From Escherichia phage REP2, in sequence record OQ174501.1: a DNA stretch of 64,000 bases; one strand, written 5' to 3'. The notes below the pieces were generated by a model, which saw only the letters and a list, made by a program, of their open reading frames with translations, did no database searches and was not told the DNA's origin. This document shows, piece after piece, positions 6,541 through 53,202 of the stretch (its first letter is position 1; every line of letters starts with the position of its first letter). The position numbers and the translations under genes were made by a program.

Positions 6541-6570
6541 GTTTACATACCACAAGGACCGTGGTACTAT
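6541..6570 (+). promoter_or_regulatory. T4-type early promoter
   Basis: A-rich upstream, GTTTAC at 6541-6546, 18-nt spacer, TGgTACTAT at 6562-6570. Confidence 0.6.
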
Positions 6571-7053: not shown

Positions 7054-7083
7054 GTTTACAAGACTGTTCTTCCGTGGTACTAT
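7054..7083 (+). promoter_or_regulatory. T4-type early promoter
   Basis: GTTTAC at 7054-7059, 18-nt spacer, TGgTACTAT with -10 at 7078-7083. Confidence 0.6.
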
Positions 7084-7111
7084 TACCCTATCAACTACGG
7101 AGGAACAGAAA

Positions 7112-7225
7112 ATGAAAAAGATTGTTAAAGCTATATGGAATGTAGTTATAATACTAATAGTTTTGAGTATATTCCCAATCGTTTTAATGATTGATGTATT
7201 AAACGCTTACTTTGGATTTATGTGA
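7112..7225 (+). CDS. Small membrane peptide (37 aa)
   Basis: ATG at 7112 preceded by GGAGG; translation MKKIVKAIWNVVIILIVLSIFPIVLMIDVLNAYFGFM. Confidence 0.4.
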   Translation: MKKIVKAIWNVVIILIVLSIFPIVLMIDVLNAYFGFM

Positions 7226-30975: not shown

Positions 30976-32399
30976 TTAATGTTATCAAAAGTAGTGGTGT
31001 TTCTCAGAGCTTTGACCCGCAAAAAATTATTAAAGTTTTATCTTGGGCAGCTGAAGGAACATCTGTAGATCCTTATGAATTATATGAAAATATTAAATCA
31101 TATCTCCGTGATGGAATGACCACTGATGACATTCAGACTATTGTCATTAAGGCTGCTGCGAATTCTATTTCAGTTGAAGAGCCTGATTATCAATACGTAG
31201 CTGCACGCTGTTTAATGTTTGCTCTTCGTAAGCATGTTTACGGGCAATATGAACCACGTTCATTTATTGACCATATTTCTTACTGTGTAAATGAAGGTAA
31301 ATATGACCCCGAATTATTGTCAAAATATTCAGCAGAAGAAATTACATTTTTAGAATCAAAAATTAAGCACGAACGGGATATGGAATTTACTTATTCCGGG
31401 GCGATGCAATTAAAAGAAAAATATCTAGTTAAAGATAAAACCACTGGTCAAATTTATGAAACTCCACAGTTTGCATTTATGACTATTGGAATGGCATTGC
31501 ATCAAGATGAACCTGTTGATAGATTAAAACATGTTATTCGTTTTTATGAAGCAGTATCTACTCGACAGATTTCACTGCCAACTCCTATTATGGCTGGTTG
31601 CCGTACTCCGACTCGACAGTTCAGTTCATGCGTTGTTATTGAGGCAGGAGATTCATTGAAGTCTATCAATAAGGCTTCCGCTTCGATTGTTGAATATATC
31701 TCTAAACGCGCTGGAATTGGTATTAACGTTGGTATGATTCGTGCTGAAGGTTCTAAGATTGGCATGGGTGAAGTACGCCATACTGGTGTTATTCCTTTTT
31801 GGAAACATTTTCAGACTGCAGTTAAATCATGTTCACAGGGTGGAATTCGTGGCGGCGCTGCTACTGCTTATTATCCTATTTGGCATTTGGAAGTTGAAAA
31901 TCTTCTTGTTTTGAAAAATAACAAAGGCGTAGAAGAAAACCGCATTCGTCATATGGATTATGGTGTTCAACTGAATGATTTGATGATGGAACGTTTTGGA
32001 AAGAACGATTACATTACTTTGTTCAGTCCCCATGAAATGGGCGGAGAGCTTTATTATTCTTATTTTAAAGACCAAGACCGTTTCCGTGAATTGTATGAAG
32101 CCGCAGAAAAAGACCCTAATATTCGTAAAAAGCGTATTAAAGCTCGTGAACTATTTGAATTGCTCATGACTGAACGCTCAGGAACAGCAAGGATTTATGT
32201 ACAGTTCATTGATAATACGAATAACTATACTCCATTTATTCGTGAAAAGGCACCTATTCGTCAGAGTAACTTGTGCTGTGAAATTGCTATTCCAACAAAT
32301 GACGTGAATAGCCAACAAACCCGTTTAATCAAAATTAAGAAGTCGGATGTAGCTAAGTTTTATGAAGCTAATCCTGGCGGTATAATTCAAAGCAAATAA
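30966..32399 (+). CDS. nrdA: Ribonucleotide reductase alpha subunit, N-terminal piece (477 aa), truncated by insertion
   Basis: ATP-cone N-terminus and class I core up to the active-site segment SNLCCEIAIPTNDVN; then 29 unrelated codons and a stop. Confidence 0.85.
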   Translation: MQLINVIKSSGVSQSFDPQKIIKVLSWAAEGTSVDPYELYENIKSYLRDGMTTDDIQTIVIKAAANSISVEEPDYQYVAARCLMFALRKHVYGQYEPRSFIDHISYCVNEGKYDPELLSKYSAEEITFLESKIKHERDMEFTYSGAMQLKEKYLVKDKTTGQIYETPQFAFMTIGMALHQDEPVDRLKHVIRFYEAVSTRQISLPTPIMAGCRTPTRQFSSCVVIEAGDSLKSINKASASIVEYISKRAGIGINVGMIRAEGSKIGMGEVRHTGVIPFWKHFQTAVKSCSQGGIRGGAATAYYPIWHLEVENLLVLKNNKGVEENRIRHMDYGVQLNDLMMERFGKNDYITLFSPHEMGGELYYSYFKDQDRFRELYEAAEKDPNIRKKRIKARELFELLMTERSGTARIYVQFIDNTNNYTPFIREKAPIRQSNLCCEIAIPTNDVNSQQTRLIKIKKSDVAKFYEANPGGIIQSK

Positions 32400-35391: not shown

Positions 35392-36979
<1,588 letters not shown>

Positions 36980-36982
36980 GCT

Positions 36983-37012
36983 GTTTACAAGTCCCTCGTG
37001 TTGTGTTATAAT
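36983..37012 (+). promoter_or_regulatory. T4-type early promoter (alc), part of a duplicated promoter-leader module
   Basis: GTTTAC at 36983-36988, 18-nt spacer, TATAAT at 37007-37012; about 52 of 58 nt identical to 52823-52880. Confidence 0.6.
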
Positions 37013-37043
37013 AATCTTACTGACATAACATGAGGACTTTATA

Positions 37044-37547
37044 ATGGATTTGCAGCTTATTACTACTGAGATGGTCGTTGAAGCATACGGTGATACTACA
37101 GATGGGATTTCTGTATTCAAAGGAAATCGTCGAGTTGGATATATCACCGATCTTAAGAAAGATTTAGCTAAGCAAGTCAAGCGGAAAACTACCATTAAAG
37201 AATATCGAAATCGTCGTCTTGAGCAAGCCCGCGATATGCTTCCTGATGCGGTTGAAGAGATGAAAGTCTTTTTAGAAAATCAACTCGCTAAGTATGAGTG
37301 CGAAGTGTTCATTAATCAGACTCAGCCCAATGTTCATATCAATAGCTGTAAATGCTATATCATCGTTAATCCTTTGACTGGAAAGCATCGTCTTGGAATT
37401 AGTAATCCAAATCGTAGTGCATCGGATATGGCAGAAGATGTTGAGGCATGCTTTAAAATTTCTAAATCTCCGGCTGAACATCATATTTTAATTAACGGTC
37501 TTTCTCAAGACGATATTGTAGAGGTTATTAAAACTTTATGCATGTAA
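37044..37547 (+). CDS. alc: Alc (host transcription unfolding/termination on cytosine DNA)
   Basis: 167 codons as in T4 Alc; position after rnlA. Confidence 0.85.
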   Translation: MDLQLITTEMVVEAYGDTTDGISVFKGNRRVGYITDLKKDLAKQVKRKTTIKEYRNRRLEQARDMLPDAVEEMKVFLENQLAKYECEVFINQTQPNVHINSCKCYIIVNPLTGKHRLGISNPNRSASDMAEDVEACFKISKSPAEHHILINGLSQDDIVEVIKTLCM

Positions 37548-40302: not shown

Positions 40303-40332
40303 GTTTACTTTACGGTAGAGTTGTGATATTAT
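40303..40332 (+). promoter_or_regulatory. T4-type early promoter with palindrome flanking the -10
   Basis: GTTTAC at 40303-40308, TATTAT at 40327-40332; GGTAGAGTTGT and ATAGCTCTACC form an 11-bp inverted repeat. Confidence 0.55.
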
Positions 40333-43842: not shown

Positions 43843-43872
43843 GTTTACAGTATGGTTCCTTTGTGATAGTAT
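43843..43872 (+). promoter_or_regulatory. T4-type early promoter
   Basis: GTTTAC at 43843-43848, 18-nt spacer, TGaTAGTAT. Confidence 0.55.
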
Positions 43873-44234: not shown

Positions 44235-44263
44235 GTTTACTTTGGTACAGGATATGATATTAT
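44235..44263 (+). promoter_or_regulatory. T4-type early promoter with palindrome GGTACAGG/CCTGTACC flanking the -10
   Basis: GTTTAC at 44235-44240, TATTAT at 44258-44263; 8-bp inverted repeat at 44244-44251 and 44267-44274. Confidence 0.5.
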
Positions 44264-48614: not shown

Positions 48615-48640
48615 AAAGGCCTTCGGGCCTTTAATTTTAT
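48615..48640 (+). terminator. Terminator-like hairpin AAAGGCC-TTCG-GGCCTTT plus AATTTTAT
   Basis: Perfect 7-bp stem with UUCG loop and a short T-rich tail. Confidence 0.6.
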
Positions 48641-48645
48641 AAATA
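48638..48645 (+). promoter_or_regulatory. Late promoter TATAAATA (alt)
   Basis: Exact TATAAATA about 24 nt upstream of the alt ATG. Confidence 0.65.
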
Positions 48646-48668
48646 GAATAAACACTAGAGAGGATAAC

Positions 48669-50762
48669 ATGGAACTTATTACAGAATTATTTGACGAAGA
48701 TACTACTCTTCCGATTACAAACTTAAATCCAAAGAAGAAAATACCACAAATTTTTTCAGTTCATGTTGATGATGCAATTGAACAACCAGGCTTTCGTTTA
48801 TGTACCTATACATCTGGAGGTGATACTAATCGTGATTTAAAGATGGGCGATAAAATGATGCACATTGTTCCTTTTACATTAACTGCTAAAGGTTCAATTG
48901 CTAAATTAAAAGGTCTTGGTCCAAGCCCGATTAATTATATCAATTCAGTTTTTACTGTTGCAATGCAAACAATGCGTCAATATAAAATTGATGCCTGTAT
49001 GCTTCGTATTCTTAAGTCTAAAACCGCCGGTCAAGCTCGACAAATTCAACTTATTGCTGATAGACTCATCCGCAGTCGTTCAGGTGGCAGATACGTCCTT
49101 CTTAAGGAACTCTGGGATTACGATAAAAAGTATGCATATATTCTTATACATCGTAAAAATGTATCACTAGAAGACATTCCAGGAGTTCCAGAAATTAGCA
49201 CCGAGCTTTTTACTAAAGTTGAATCGAAGGTCGGTGATGTTTATATCAATAAAGATACTGGAGCTCAAGTAACCAAAAATGAGGCAATTGCTGCATCTAT
49301 TGCACAAGAAAATGATAAACGTTCTGACCAAGCCGTAATCGTTAAAGTTAAAATTTCCCGTAGAGCAATTGCACAAAGTCAGTCATTGGAATCTTCTAGA
49401 TTTGAAAGTGAATTATTCCAGAAGTATGAATCTACAGCAGCTAATTTTAATAAACCAGCTACTGCACCTTTAATTCCCGAAGCAGAAGAAATGAAAATTG
49501 GAATTAATTCATTAGCTTCTAAAACAAAGGCAGCAAAAATTATTGCTGAAGGAACGGCAGATGAACTTCACTATGATTATAAATTCTTTCCAATGAGTCA
49601 AGTCGGTGAAGTTTCAGAAAAAATTAAAGAAGTAATTTTTAATGCAATTAAAAATGAACCAACTACTTCAATAAAATGTTTAGAGAAATACGCAGCAGCT
49701 GTAAATCAATTCTTTGAAGATTATAAAGATAAATGGCTTGCTAATCATAATAAAAATCGTAAAGGACAACCAGATGAAGTCTGGGAAGAAATAACTAAAA
49801 ATTCCTGGAACGCAGCAAAAACTAAATTCCTCAAACGAATGATTTACAGTTTTTCTGGAATTGGTGCTGGTCCAATGATTGATATTACTATTGCCCGCGA
49901 TGGTTCTAAATATACTCCATCACAAAAGCGTGGCATTAGAGAATATTGCGGTTCAGGATATACTGACATCAATAATCTTCTTTTAGGTCGTTACAATCCA
50001 GAACGATACGATGTAATGAGTGAAAAAGAAATTGAATCTGCTATAAATAACTTAGATTCAGCTTTTGAAAATGGTGACCGTATACCAGAAGGCATTACAG
50101 TTTATCGTGCTCAAAGTATGACTGCTCCTATATATGAAGCGTTAGTTAAAAATAAAGTGTTCTACTTCAGAAATTTTGTATCTACTTCTTTAACTCCTAT
50201 CATTTTTGGACGTTTTGGAATCACACATGCTGGTATTGGTCTTTTAGAACCAGAAGCTCGTAACGAATTAACAGTTGATAAAAATGAAGAAGGAATAACT
50301 ATTAATCCAAACGAAATAAGAGCGTATAAAGAAAATCCTGAATATGTTAAAGTTCAAATAGGATGGGCAATTGATGGAGCTCATAAAGTTAATGTTGTAT
50401 ATCCAGGAAGTCTCGGAATAGCAACAGAAGCTGAAGTTATTCTACCACGCGGATTGATGGTCAAGGTTAATAAAATAACTGATGCTTCTAATAATGACGG
50501 AACAACATCTAATAATACAAAACTCATTCAAGCTGAAGTTATGACCACGGAAGAGCTCACCGAATCGGTAATCTATGATGGAGACCATTTAATGGAAACT
50601 GGTGAATTGGTTGCAATGACAGGTGATATTGAAATAGAAGACAGAGTTGACTTTGCATCATTTGTTTCATCAAATATTAAACAGAAAGTAGAATCATCTC
50701 TTGGAATTATTGCGTCTTGCATAGATATTACAAACATGCCTTACAAGTTCGTTCAAGGATAA
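48669..50762 (+). CDS. alt: Alt-type ADP-ribosyltransferase (head-packaged, injected)
   Basis: 697 codons; N-terminus MELITELFDEDTTLPITNLNPKKKIPQIFSVHVDD... matches T4 Alt as recalled; R-S-E type motifs (VYRAQ, FVSTSL, EAEVILPRG). Confidence 0.85.
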   Translation: MELITELFDEDTTLPITNLNPKKKIPQIFSVHVDDAIEQPGFRLCTYTSGGDTNRDLKMGDKMMHIVPFTLTAKGSIAKLKGLGPSPINYINSVFTVAMQTMRQYKIDACMLRILKSKTAGQARQIQLIADRLIRSRSGGRYVLLKELWDYDKKYAYILIHRKNVSLEDIPGVPEISTELFTKVESKVGDVYINKDTGAQVTKNEAIAASIAQENDKRSDQAVIVKVKISRRAIAQSQSLESSRFESELFQKYESTAANFNKPATAPLIPEAEEMKIGINSLASKTKAAKIIAEGTADELHYDYKFFPMSQVGEVSEKIKEVIFNAIKNEPTTSIKCLEKYAAAVNQFFEDYKDKWLANHNKNRKGQPDEVWEEITKNSWNAAKTKFLKRMIYSFSGIGAGPMIDITIARDGSKYTPSQKRGIREYCGSGYTDINNLLLGRYNPERYDVMSEKEIESAINNLDSAFENGDRIPEGITVYRAQSMTAPIYEALVKNKVFYFRNFVSTSLTPIIFGRFGITHAGIGLLEPEARNELTVDKNEEGITINPNEIRAYKENPEYVKVQIGWAIDGAHKVNVVYPGSLGIATEAEVILPRGLMVKVNKITDASNNDGTTSNNTKLIQAEVMTTEELTESVIYDGDHLMETGELVAMTGDIEIEDRVDFASFVSSNIKQKVESSLGIIASCIDITNMPYKFVQG

Positions 50763-50765
50763 ATC

Positions 50766-52823
50766 ATGGAACTTATTACAGAATTATTTGACGGCGCCGA
50801 AGCGCCGGTTGTTAACTTAAATCCTAAGCATAAAATACCTCAAATTTTTGCTATTCAAGCCGGTGAAGAAAGCGTTCTTCCTGGATTTCGATTTTGTACA
50901 TACACCTCTGGCGGTGATACGAATAAAAACGTTAAGCCAGGCGACAAAATGATGCATATCGTAATGATAGGTGTTAATGAGAAACTATCATTAGTTAAGC
51001 TTAAAAACTTGGGTGGAAATCCAATTGGCGTCATTAATGCTGTTTTTGATACTGCTCTTCAAACAATGAAGCAGTATAAAATTGATGCATGCCTATTCCG
51101 CGTACTAAAAAGTAAAACAAATGGCGCAGCTCGTCAAATGCAAGTTATTGCTGACCGTTTAGTACGTACTAAAGGAGCAGGTCGATATGTTCTTTTAAAG
51201 GAAATCTGGGATTATGATAAAAAGTACGCATATATTATGGTTTACCGTAAAAATGCCAATTTAGAAGACATTCCAGGTGTACCTCCTATTTCAACCGAGT
51301 TATTCACAAAAGTTGAATCAAAGGTTGGTGATGTTTATGTAGACGTTAAAACAGGTAATGCTGTTCCTAAAGCTGTTGCTGTTGCTGCTTCTATTGCTTT
51401 AGAAAATGATAAGCGCACGGATCAAGCTGTTATTCAGAAAACTAAAATTAGTCGTCGATTAGCAGCACAAGCTCAATATTCTACTGTTGATGCTTCACTT
51501 CAGGGTGATAGCTTCGCTGCTAAGAAATATCAAGAGTTTGAATCTAAAGTTCCGGTATATAAAGCAGAAGGACCAATGAACTCTGGCGTTATTCAGATTG
51601 GTTCAAACTTTAGCAAAGGAGCTATCGGTGGTATGAGAAGTGCTTCTCGTTTTAAATCTAGTGATTATGAACTCGAAAGCTTCCGAAATCATATTGCATT
51701 GGCTCATGCACGTTTACGTGATCCATCTATCAAGTTACAGAGCGATATAACATATCAAGGTTCTCAAGAATATTTAAAGAATAAAGAATTCTTTGATTAT
51801 AAAACTGATAAAATTTTAAGCGATCTTGCTGATATTAATATTTCTAATAGCTTTGATGTTATTAAGAAAATTATCAATGATTTAGTTAAAGGTTCTAAAG
51901 CTACACCAGATGAAAAGACAGCTATTATTCAATTTGTAATGAATGGAATTTATAAATTAATTGATGAATCTACTGCTCAGGCATATGAATATGCAAGCAC
52001 TGAAGTAACTCCAAAAGGATTAACTCAGGCTGAATCTGATGTAATTGAAGATTATTGCGCAGATTCATATGTTGAAATGAACTCGTTCCTTCTAGGTAAA
52101 CCTGATTCTACACGTGAAGAATATATGGAACGTGCTATTAAGCACATTGAGACGTTGGATTCTGCATTTGCTAAAGGTTCAGTTCTTCCTCCGGGAACTA
52201 CACTTTACCGTGGCCAAGAAGTTACTTTTAAAACTTTACGTCATAATATAGAAAATAAAATGTTCTATTTCAAGAACTTTGTATCTACTTCACTCAAGCC
52301 AAATATCTTCGGTGAATATGGTAAAAATTATATGGCTTTAGATGACGCTGGAACAGTATTTTCTGGTGAAGGAGAAGGTTCAGTTGATGCTGAAGATTTA
52401 ATGCATATGGGTAGTCATTCTACATATGCGAATGAAGACGCTGAAACTAATGTAGGTATGGTAATTAAAGGAGCTGAACGAGTTAAAGTTATCGTTCCAG
52501 GTCATTTATCAGGATTTCCATCCGAAGCTGAAGTTATTTTGCCGCGTGGAATTTTACTGAAGATTAATAAAGTAAGTACGTACATGATGAAAGAAACCGC
52601 TTATAATAAGTATCTAATTGAAGGCACGATTGTTCCTCCTTCTGAACAATTAGAGGAATCGGTATATGATGGTGACCATTTGATGGAAACCGGAGAAGTT
52701 CGTCCAATGGCTGGATTTAATCAATTCCTTGTAGAAGAATCAAAAGAAGAGGAAAGCGAAGTTTCTCAAATCTTAGCTTCTTTGGTTAACATCAACGGAA
52801 TGTCTAAAAAGTTCAAAATGTAG
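50766..52823 (+). CDS. Second Alt-like ADP-ribosyltransferase paralogue (685 aa)
   Basis: Same N-terminus (MELITELFD...NLNPK.KIPQIF) and same catalytic motifs (LYRGQ, FVSTSL, EAEVILPRG) as alt, with a divergent middle region; starts 4 nt after the alt stop. Confidence 0.8.
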   Translation: MELITELFDGAEAPVVNLNPKHKIPQIFAIQAGEESVLPGFRFCTYTSGGDTNKNVKPGDKMMHIVMIGVNEKLSLVKLKNLGGNPIGVINAVFDTALQTMKQYKIDACLFRVLKSKTNGAARQMQVIADRLVRTKGAGRYVLLKEIWDYDKKYAYIMVYRKNANLEDIPGVPPISTELFTKVESKVGDVYVDVKTGNAVPKAVAVAASIALENDKRTDQAVIQKTKISRRLAAQAQYSTVDASLQGDSFAAKKYQEFESKVPVYKAEGPMNSGVIQIGSNFSKGAIGGMRSASRFKSSDYELESFRNHIALAHARLRDPSIKLQSDITYQGSQEYLKNKEFFDYKTDKILSDLADINISNSFDVIKKIINDLVKGSKATPDEKTAIIQFVMNGIYKLIDESTAQAYEYASTEVTPKGLTQAESDVIEDYCADSYVEMNSFLLGKPDSTREEYMERAIKHIETLDSAFAKGSVLPPGTTLYRGQEVTFKTLRHNIENKMFYFKNFVSTSLKPNIFGEYGKNYMALDDAGTVFSGEGEGSVDAEDLMHMGSHSTYANEDAETNVGMVIKGAERVKVIVPGHLSGFPSEAEVILPRGILLKINKVSTYMMKETAYNKYLIEGTIVPPSEQLEESVYDGDHLMETGEVRPMAGFNQFLVEESKEEESEVSQILASLVNINGMSKKFKM

Positions 52824-52852
52824 TTTACAAGTCCCTCGTGTTGTGTTATAGT
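52823..52852 (+). promoter_or_regulatory. T4-type early promoter, second copy of the alc promoter-leader module
   Basis: GTTTAC at 52823-52828, 18-nt spacer, TATAGT at 52847-52852; near-identical to 36983-37040. Confidence 0.55.
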
Positions 52853-52883
52853 AGTTTTACTGACATAACATGAGGAACACAAA

Positions 52884-53174
52884 ATGAAATCTTCTTTGCG
52901 CTTTTTAGGTCAAGAACTCGTCGTTGAGGGCGTTATTCCCGCTGATAACGCTTTCAATGAAGCAGTTTATGATGAATTTATTAAAATTTTCGGAACCGAT
53001 AAAAAGTTTGGAATTTTTCCTTCTGAAAATTTTTCAAAGCCAGAACAGACTGAAAGTATTTTCCAAGGTGTAGTAACAGGTAAATTTGAGTCAGAAGCTC
53101 CGGTAAAAATTGAGGTTTATATTGAAGAAACCTCTGTTGCTTCAGTTGCTGCTTTTATTTCATTCCGTAAATAA
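52884..53174 (+). CDS. Hypothetical protein (96 aa)
   Basis: ORF with RBS GAGGAA; followed by a bidirectional terminator. Confidence 0.5.
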   Translation: MKSSLRFLGQELVVEGVIPADNAFNEAVYDEFIKIFGTDKKFGIFPSENFSKPEQTESIFQGVVTGKFESEAPVKIEVYIEETSVASVAAFISFRK

Positions 53175-53180
53175 AAATAT

Positions 53181-53198
53181 GGGGACCTTTCGGTCCCC
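53181..53198. terminator. Bidirectional terminator hairpin GGGGACC-TTTC-GGTCCCC between convergent genes
   Basis: Perfect 7-bp stem between the plus-strand ORF ending at 53174 and minus-strand gene 54 ending at 53203; A/T-rich on both sides. Confidence 0.6.
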
Positions 53199-53202
53199 AT
53201 TG

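Follow-up and report, generated by a model that had tools for sequence, protein, structure and literature searches.

How do two unrelated genes of a T4-like phage come to be preceded by almost the same 54 nucleotides, and what does this sequence do in front of them? The question is raised by alc and alt.-3 in a 64,000-nt stretch of the Escherichia phage REP2 genome (OQ174501.1), hereafter called the window. The first copy of the repeat (copy A, 36983-37036, + strand) lies between the rnlA stop codon and the alc ATG; the second (copy B, 52823-52876, + strand) precedes alt.-3, starting on the final base of the alt.-2 stop codon. The analysis reported here suggests that the repeat is an early promoter nested in a hairpin which hides the ribosome-binding site (RBS). 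On thermodynamic and comparative grounds, this arrangement would probably limit translation of alc and alt.-3 to the transcripts started at their own promoters and keep both genes silent on middle and late read-through RNA. As this region is 100% identical to that of Escherichia phage REP3 and 96-98% identical to those of RB51, wV7 and T4-group phages, the window was assigned to the genus Tequatrovirus.

When both copies were aligned without gaps, 51 of the 54 positions were identical. Searching the window with up to three mismatches returned exactly these two sites, against 0.00 expected from 100 shuffles, so that the near-identical repeat noticed in an earlier, sequence-only reading of the window is real. 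That reading had counted 52 matches over 58 nt; the count is 51 of 58, since the identity ends right after GAGGA. The shared segment starts at the G of GTTTACA and stops at the A of GAGGA, the flanks being unrelated, and the three mismatches (module positions 29, 32 and 34) all fall in the loop/-10 region described below. The copies are in direct orientation and 15,840 bp apart, in line with the spacing of about 15.8 kb first given. The downstream coding sequences are unrelated, as had also been stated: BLASTP yielded no alignment between Alc and Alt.-3, and their Pfam families differ (PF17527 and PF17602/DUF5498, respectively). Both copies are present in T4 itself and in about 498 of the 499 matching Tequatrovirus records.

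Each copy carries an early promoter of the sigma-70 type. For copy A (36984-37012, + strand), this consists of TTTACA, 17 bp, TG and TATAAT; for copy B (52824-52852, + strand), of a -35 TTTACA at 52824-52829, a 17-bp spacer, TG at 52844-52845 and a -10 TATAGT at 52847-52852. In the promoter scan, the consensus score was 11/12 for copy A and 10/12 for copy B, both with the TG extension, and both copies conform to the T4-type early-promoter pattern ((G)TTTAC(A), 17-bp spacer, TGn, TAnnnT). T4 early promoters have been described as being of the UP/-35/TGn/-10 type (Hinton 2010), and the modules resemble them in the GTTTACA -35, the spacer length, the TGn, the TATAAT-like -10 and the A/T-rich DNA upstream. 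Transcription is predicted to start at about 37019 (copy A) and about 52859 (copy B), some 7 nt past the -10; the corresponding T4 positions would be near 136,300 and near 123,057, respectively. The late-promoter motif TATAAATA was not found in or near either module.

Two arms sequestering the Shine-Dalgarno sequence (SD) had been proposed at 52834-52842 (CCTCGTGTT) and 52867-52875 (AACATGAGG). These are indeed complementary over 9 bp, including one G-U pair, but the true helix is longer. In copy B it comprises 14 bp, in which 52834-52847 (CCTCGTGTTGTGTT), running from the latter half of the spacer to the first base of the -10, is paired with 52862-52875 (GACATAACATGAGG), the latter containing the SD GAGG(A) at 52872-52876. 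In copy A, the 5' arm (36989-37007) has the core CCTCGTGTTGTGTT at 36994-37007 and a lower extension in which AAGTCC pairs with GGACTT; its 3' arm GACATAACATGAGGACTT (37022-37039) contains the SD GAGGA at 37032-37036. Between the arms, in the loop, are the -10 and the start of transcription. The 3' strand makes up the early part of the leader, with the Shine-Dalgarno GAGG: it begins about 3 nt past the expected start and finishes on the SD, 8 nt ahead of the ATG. The 5' arm, or anti-SD arm, thus lies within the promoter's own spacer and -10, a point which the sequence-only reading overlooked and on which the likely mechanism centres. The early-promoter consensus of Hinton (2010) is silent on the content of the spacer, whereas the spacer of these modules carries a second, RNA-level code.

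Because this arm is situated in the spacer and -10, upstream of any start at that promoter, a transcript from the module's own promoter cannot contain it, and the hairpin forms only on read-through RNA. The predicted folding energy was -23.0 kcal/mol for the alt.-3 copy (z -5.6) and -22.8 kcal/mol for the alc copy (z -4.9), and the RNAs beginning at the predicted own starts were no more structured than their shuffles (z +1.2 and +1.5). Calculated over the ensemble, opening the region from the SD through the AUG would cost 13.2 kcal/mol on read-through RNA versus 2.5 kcal/mol on own-start RNA for alc, and 12.2 versus 2.1 kcal/mol for alt.-3. On read-through RNA, the predicted probability that the SD is unpaired was 0.001-0.009. 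Promoter scores, folding and RBS-opening costs therefore agree with the first description of the repeat as a promoter-leader module with SD-sequestering arms. Neither hairpin is followed by a T-run, and a terminator scan, limited to a consensus, was blank at both. With Rfam 15, no family reached its gathering score; only generic hairpins were returned below threshold (MIR6140, 20-22 bits for a threshold of 140; RNA-OUT, 19 for a threshold of 41).

Both modules come after genes whose products are needed late. RnlA (gp63) is the tail-fibre attachment factor; alt is a late gene in T4 and Alt is a late protein packaged in the head. The terminator scan detected no terminator between rnlA and copy A, nor between alt.-2 and copy B, and rnlA transcripts would consequently read into copy A. 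Upstream of rnlA, the mapped T4 middle promoters PnrdA, PnrdB and PI-TevIII feed transcription through this gene. According to T4 omics data, alc and alt.-3 belong to the early class both as RNA and as protein, rnlA is early as RNA and late as protein, and alt.-1 and alt.-2 RNA is middle; alt.-3 is thus early in spite of its location behind the late alt and the middle alt.-1/alt.-2. Given that the modules follow late-needed genes with no intervening terminator, and that alc and alt.-3 are nevertheless early, the module is proposed to confine translation to their own early transcripts.

In this scheme, RNA begun at a module promoter (near 37019 at alc and near 52859 at alt.-3) would lack the 5' strand and have its RBS open, and RNA arriving from upstream would carry both strands and have its RBS locked. 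The upstream RNA would be the nrd-denA-rnlA message from the middle promoters in the case of alc, and the alt/alt.-2 message, presumably from a late promoter at 48638, in the case of alt.-3. Alc and Alt.-3 would then be made only from their own early transcripts, uncoupled from the upstream genes expressed later. Translational coupling was considered as a means of opening the stem. From the rnlA and alt.-2 stop codons it is 9-10 nt to the first paired base and about 60 nt to the AUG, a distance judged, on general grounds, too great for a ribosome terminating there to unwind the helix. RegB was likewise set aside, the Tequatrovirus SD being GAGGA and not the RegB target GGAG.

In order to follow the hairpin beyond Tequatrovirus, the rnlA-alc intergenic region was collected from 21 lineages of T4-like phages (Tevenvirinae). 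In the scan of IMG/VR, single proteins gave few T4-like loci, and the Alc alignment did better as query. A MAFFT alignment of 22 alc modules was left out of the covariation analysis, as the 3' arms were out of register; covariation was instead assessed through alignment-free duplex energies of cognate and non-cognate pairs, and in an ungapped register fixed by promoter geometry. The same architecture, with differing arm sequences, was found in 12 of the 21 lineages, including Tequatro-, Karam-, Gelderland-, Jiaoda-, Roskilde-, Dhaka-, Marfa- and Winklervirus, EcS1 and others: GTTTACA, directly followed by the anti-SD arm, the -10 in the loop, and a 3' arm ending on the SD. Examples of such arm pairs are CCTCGTGTT/AACATGAGG, TCTCCATTTGGTT/AACCAAATGGAGA and TCCTCGTCAG/CTGATGAGGA.

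Over all 21 lineages, those devoid of the feature included, the mean energy of the spacer-leader duplex was -14.7 kcal/mol for cognate versus -8.9 kcal/mol for non-cognate pairs. None of 50,000 permutations reached the observed cognate mean, and the own leader was the best partner in 12/21 lineages. In the fixed register, 89.6% of 221 pair cells were canonical, versus 37-50% when the partner was slid by 1-3 nt. Six canonical pair types occur at pair 13 and four at each of pairs 15 and 16, and pairs 10 and 11 change jointly between C-G and U-A as the SD goes from GAGG to GGAG. Such strong compensatory covariation marks the alc hairpin as an ancient structure that has been conserved.

The alc region of Gaprivervirus is arranged differently. 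In this genus (L023, 154-387 and 401-904; also L010, L051, L052 and L073), a 78-codon partial duplicate of the alc N-terminus lies between rnlA and the full-length alc. Ahead of this duplicate lies a terminator-like hairpin (GGGGTGTACAAGCCCC and a T-run) whose loop is the -35, and a separate leader hairpin there pairs the SD.

The history of the alt.-3 copy appears to be different. In Gapriver-, Dhaka-, Mosig-, Marfa-, Kanagawa- and Gelderlandvirus, alt.-3 is preceded by a different early promoter with the leader ..CAACATGAGGAA..ATGAAATC; the anti-SD arm is absent at alt.-3 in these six genera, the spacers having only a small local hairpin. The anti-SD form was found at this locus in Tequatrovirus alone, where it is the alc module (94-100% identical). 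The 10 alc copies and 11 alt.-3 copies of Tequatrovirus have the same consensus 54-mer, with 54/54 identity in some genomes. Furthermore, the identity is bounded exactly by the -35, where any two early promoters agree, and by the SD, at which the old alt.-3 leader and alc were alike from the outset (ACATGAGGA). This distribution and these boundaries uphold the earlier description of the repeat as a portable cassette. Since the six other genera have an early promoter lacking the anti-SD arm there, the alt.-3 copy was most likely taken from alc in the ancestor of Tequatrovirus; patch recombination (gene conversion) would have laid the alc module onto an older alt.-3 early promoter, with junctions in the shared GTTTACA and in the SD ACATGAGGA. 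At module positions 16, 29 and 32, the same alleles segregate at both loci, which hints at a continuing exchange between them, recurrent transitions being an equally possible source. In the 21 copies, the 3' arm is invariant save one G-to-A change, which improves a pair, and most changes in the 5' arm preserve pairing (C15T gives U-G, G16A gives A-U).

The individual ingredients of this element are all known: T4 early promoters, RBS hairpins bypassed by an internal promoter, and promoter-early stem-loop (PeSL) cassettes. Inhibitory hairpins at the translation starts of T4 e, soc, 49 and I-TevI (also I-TevII/III, mobE and segB) have been reviewed by Uzan & Miller (2010), among whose examples alc and alt.-3 do not figure. 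As in those genes, the SD of both modules is predicted to be locked in a helix on long RNA initiated upstream, and the promoter is placed inside or after the 5' strand, so that it would give a shorter, translated RNA lacking that strand. The structure is also kept in related phages, here in 12 of 21 lineages at alc and in Tequatrovirus only at alt.-3. In contrast, the internal promoter of e, soc, 49 and I-TevI is a late one (TATAAATA) and their translation is late-only, whereas the modules have an early sigma-70-type promoter whose own spacer is the 5' strand, and the restriction would be to immediate-early times.

The second related system is the PeSL cassettes of T4-like phages (Arbiol et al. 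2010; Comeau et al. 2014). These compact intergenic units combine a stem-loop, an SD and a start codon with an early promoter of sigma-70-like type (TTTACW-N17-TAYWAT in T4/PST); the modules have the same kind of promoter, SD and start. PeSLs recur within a genome and have been linked to exchange by recombination; for the modules, a past copying event is probable, and their behaviour as a portable cassette agrees with the PeSL concept. The PeSL stem is located just upstream of the promoter in T4/PST, whereas that of the modules spans from spacer to SD and resembles the placement in RB49, in which stems between the -35 and -10 or overlapping the -10 were described (Arbiol et al. 2010). PeSL stems have been described as terminators or attenuators; the module hairpins have no T-run and are best read as a translational lock. 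In addition, with 15.8 kb and essential genes between them, the modules would give no viable deletions of the mini-circle type. In the literature covered, which did not extend to the principal review of the T4 genome or to the figures on PeSLs, we met no description of an early promoter whose anti-SD spacer covaries at alc and was copied to alt.-3. Searching the literature for mapped T4 starts or a hairpin at alc gave nothing specific.

Hairpins of this kind are not restricted to the two copies. An element of unrelated sequence and the same design is present at 7054-7114, with GTTTACA at 7054-7060 and a -10 TACTAT at 7078-7083. Its 5' arm CTGTTCTTCCGTGG (7064-7077) faces the 3' arm CTACGGAGGAACAG (7095-7108), which covers the SD GGAGGA, and the ATG at 7112 starts a 37-aa membrane open reading frame (ORF) in the ndd.4/ndd.5 region. 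The predicted cost of opening the RBS was 17.4 kcal/mol on read-through RNA versus 1.2 kcal/mol on own-start RNA, and conservation of the element extends to about 494 Tequatrovirus records. By its sequence, it is an independent example of the design. The + strand of the window has 14 GTTTAC-type early promoters, the two copies included. When their spacers were paired with the 40 nt downstream, the energy was -10.8 kcal/mol for cognate versus -6.7 kcal/mol for non-cognate combinations (p < 2e-5), and p was 0.006 once the three strongest promoters were omitted. Inverted repeats enclosing the -10 are thus a general feature of these promoters, matching the PeSL stems over the -10 box. Examples are GGTAGAG/CTCTACC at 40303 and GGTACAGG/CCTGTACC at 44235; 27561 is also among the set, and a weaker anti-SD, TCCTTTG/CAAAGGA, occurs at 43843. 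It is quite possible, though somewhat less likely than not, that promoter-embedded anti-SD hairpins are a general device of the T-even early region for discriminating transcripts by their start, kept at alc, converted to alt.-3, independent at 7054-7114 and weaker at other early promoters.

Two further observations concern these promoters. Many early promoters have short spacer hairpins with an SD-like (A)AGGA(A) loop (GCACaaggaaGTGC, ACACCaaggaaGGTGT, ATCCatggaaGGAT, CCACAAGGACCGTGG); such spacers were seen in the alt.-3 promoters of other genera (L032-L037), at the alc of Mosig-like phages (L025/L061) and at 6547-6561 of the window. In Mosigvirus ST0 (L004, 2480-2545), a segment 85% identical over 46 nt to the -10/leader half of the module (TATAGTAGTCCTACTGAAACATGAGGAACACAAAATG) precedes a 66-aa ORF between denB and ndd; its spacer differs from that of the module and finds its partner immediately past the -10 instead of at the SD.

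Several results weigh against a translational lock acting through the SD, or limit its reach. SD occlusion is absent at alc in 9 of the 21 lineages: in Teguna- and Kanagawavirus and in Acinetobacter phages, the hairpin surrounds the -10 and does not reach the SD, and Mosig-like phages and lineage L072 have none. Other genera possess alt.-3 without the anti-SD arm, and the alt.-3 copy could for this reason be a neutral passenger of the conversion. Among Tequatrovirus copies, G16T at the alc of T6 and C12A in L018 each break a pair, the events being too few for a test. Comparison of sense and antisense folding, which can tell the strands apart only in the presence of G-U pairs (Tequatrovirus, Jiaodavirus and the 7054 element), does not consistently favour the RNA strand outside these three. 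On own-start alt.-3 RNA, the SD is itself weakly paired with the coding region (unpaired probability 0.12), though the opening cost is small, as given above. Finally, the translational block is a thermodynamic prediction combined with comparative inference.

The failure of some alc hairpins to reach the SD would fit the idea that the stem-loop is an insulator of the PeSL type, acting on transcription or RNA stability by attenuating upstream transcription or capping the 3' end of the upstream message, with the SD pairing incidental. The generality of inverted repeats around the -10 among the 14 promoters points the same way, as do the RB49 stems of similar placement, for one of which terminator activity was shown (Arbiol et al. 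2010). We nevertheless regard this explanation as improbable: both hairpins lack a T-run and were blank in the terminator scan; in all 12 lineages, moreover, the 3' arm stops on the SD, whatever form this takes (GAGG, GGAG, GAGAGG), and the 5' arm always begins right after the -35 with the matching anti-SD, a placement which a pure terminator or stabiliser would not need. The alt.-3 copy, alternatively, might be only a footprint of recombination, in which the hairpin has no selected role and the repeat serves mainly as a substrate for homologous exchange; the missing arm in six genera, the polymorphisms common to both loci, suggestive of ongoing conversion, the dispensability of alt.-3 in T4 (Vassallo et al. 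2024) and the known recombination of PeSL cassettes (Arbiol et al. 2010; Comeau et al. 2014) speak for it. This reading, too, seems rather unlikely in view of the retention of both copies in practically all Tequatrovirus records, the near-invariant 3' arm and mostly pairing-neutral changes of the 5' arm, and the setting of alt.-3, which parallels that of alc behind a gene with a late-appearing product.

The remaining explanations can be given much less weight. The sequence-only reading had proposed that the direct repeats mediate deletion or duplication of the interval between them. The two predicted junctions were built and queried against 50,697 phage records: neither rnlA-module-alt.-3 nor alt.-2-module-alc occurred in any of the 499 matching Tequatrovirus records, each query being split into two distant places. 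Genes 30 (ligase) and 31, both within the interval, are essential in T4, and a 15.8-kb duplication exceeds the terminal redundancy of its headful-packaged genome. For these reasons, stable rearrangements were neither seen nor expected, and the products would be transient at most; such a role is thus very unlikely, even though the copies are 54 bp long, 94-100% identical and directly oriented, and short patches of homology are reported to suffice for recombination in T4 (discussion in Arbiol et al. 2010). Equally hard to credit, and if anything slightly more so, is an inverted repeat acting as DNA, either as the site of a dimeric regulator or as a cruciform modulating the promoter. The repeat does overlap the promoter core, and in several genera the antisense strand folds as stably as the sense strand; however, complementarity is kept while the sequence varies freely between genera, the signature of base pairing and not of protein recognition, and sense-strand G-U pairs in Tequatro- and Jiaodavirus and in the 7054 element make the sense fold 5-9 kcal/mol stabler than the antisense fold. 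That the copies are alike merely through the T4 early-promoter consensus has practically no probability left. Both are strong early promoters whose GTTTACA, TGn and TATAAT-like -10 are common to others in the window, but the other 12 GTTTAC-type promoters share just these -35, TGn and -10 elements, whereas the spacer (AGTCCCTCGTGTTG) and leader (CTTACTGACATAACATGAGGA) of the copies are identical too and occur in no other promoter of the window; the three-mismatch search, with its chance expectation of zero, refutes this reading.

If the preferred reading, a promoter nested in an RBS-hiding hairpin, is true, the spacer of an early promoter doubles as the silencer of the downstream RBS, and the gene is translated solely from RNA of its own promoter. 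This would explain how Alc, the host-transcription shut-off factor, is confined to the first minutes although alc follows genes transcribed later, and it would be the reverse, in timing, of the hairpins of e, soc, 49 and I-TevI, early-only where these are late-only. More generally, a promoter spacer could carry a second code read at the RNA level. The pair of modules would also represent a dated case of a regulatory cassette copied between unrelated genes via microhomology at the -35 and SD, as PeSL shuffling is thought to work. Such an element would bear on the mismatches between transcript and protein timing in T4 omics data and might serve in synthetic circuits as a compact part, a promoter insulating translation from upstream transcription.

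The early-transcribed strand of the window is the + strand, on which the genes follow the order rnlA (gene 63), alc, pseT.3 ... cd, 31, rIII, 30, alt.1, alt, alt.-2 and alt.-3, with the convergent late genes 54 and 48 after alt.-3. The upstream neighbour of copy A, rnlA (RNA ligase 1, confirmed by Pfam), occupies 35855-36979 (stop codon 36977-36979), and alc (167 aa), served by copy A, 37044-37547 with its ATG at 37044. Copy B serves alt.-3 (96 aa, 52884-53174) and is preceded by alt (48669-50762) and alt.-2 (50766-52823), which Pfam identifies as ADP-ribosyltransferase paralogues; all these genes are on the + strand. The late-promoter motif TATAAATA is found at 48638-48645 on the + strand, 24 nt before the alt ATG (48669). 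In the window, alt and alt.-2 are full-length tandem paralogues of 697 and 685 aa, the first 29 nt of which are identical (48668-48696 and 50765-50793). The second alt copy of T4 is degraded to the short ORFs alt.-1 and alt.-2, and the distance between the modules therefore varies among Tequatroviruses from about 13.2 to 15.8 kb. Downstream, the alt.-3 unit ends at a bidirectional terminator-like hairpin (53179-53200; ATGGGGACC..GGTCCCCAT) that separates it from the convergent gene 54 and has its T-run (ATTTTTATTT) on the side of the minus strand. A T4-type alt.-2/alt.-3 junction with the module was also encountered at 31810-31885 of MG010123.1, a 32-kb record named Staphylococcus phage SAJK-IND, where it is annotated as prohead scaffold protein; this record is probably a chimeric or contaminated assembly.

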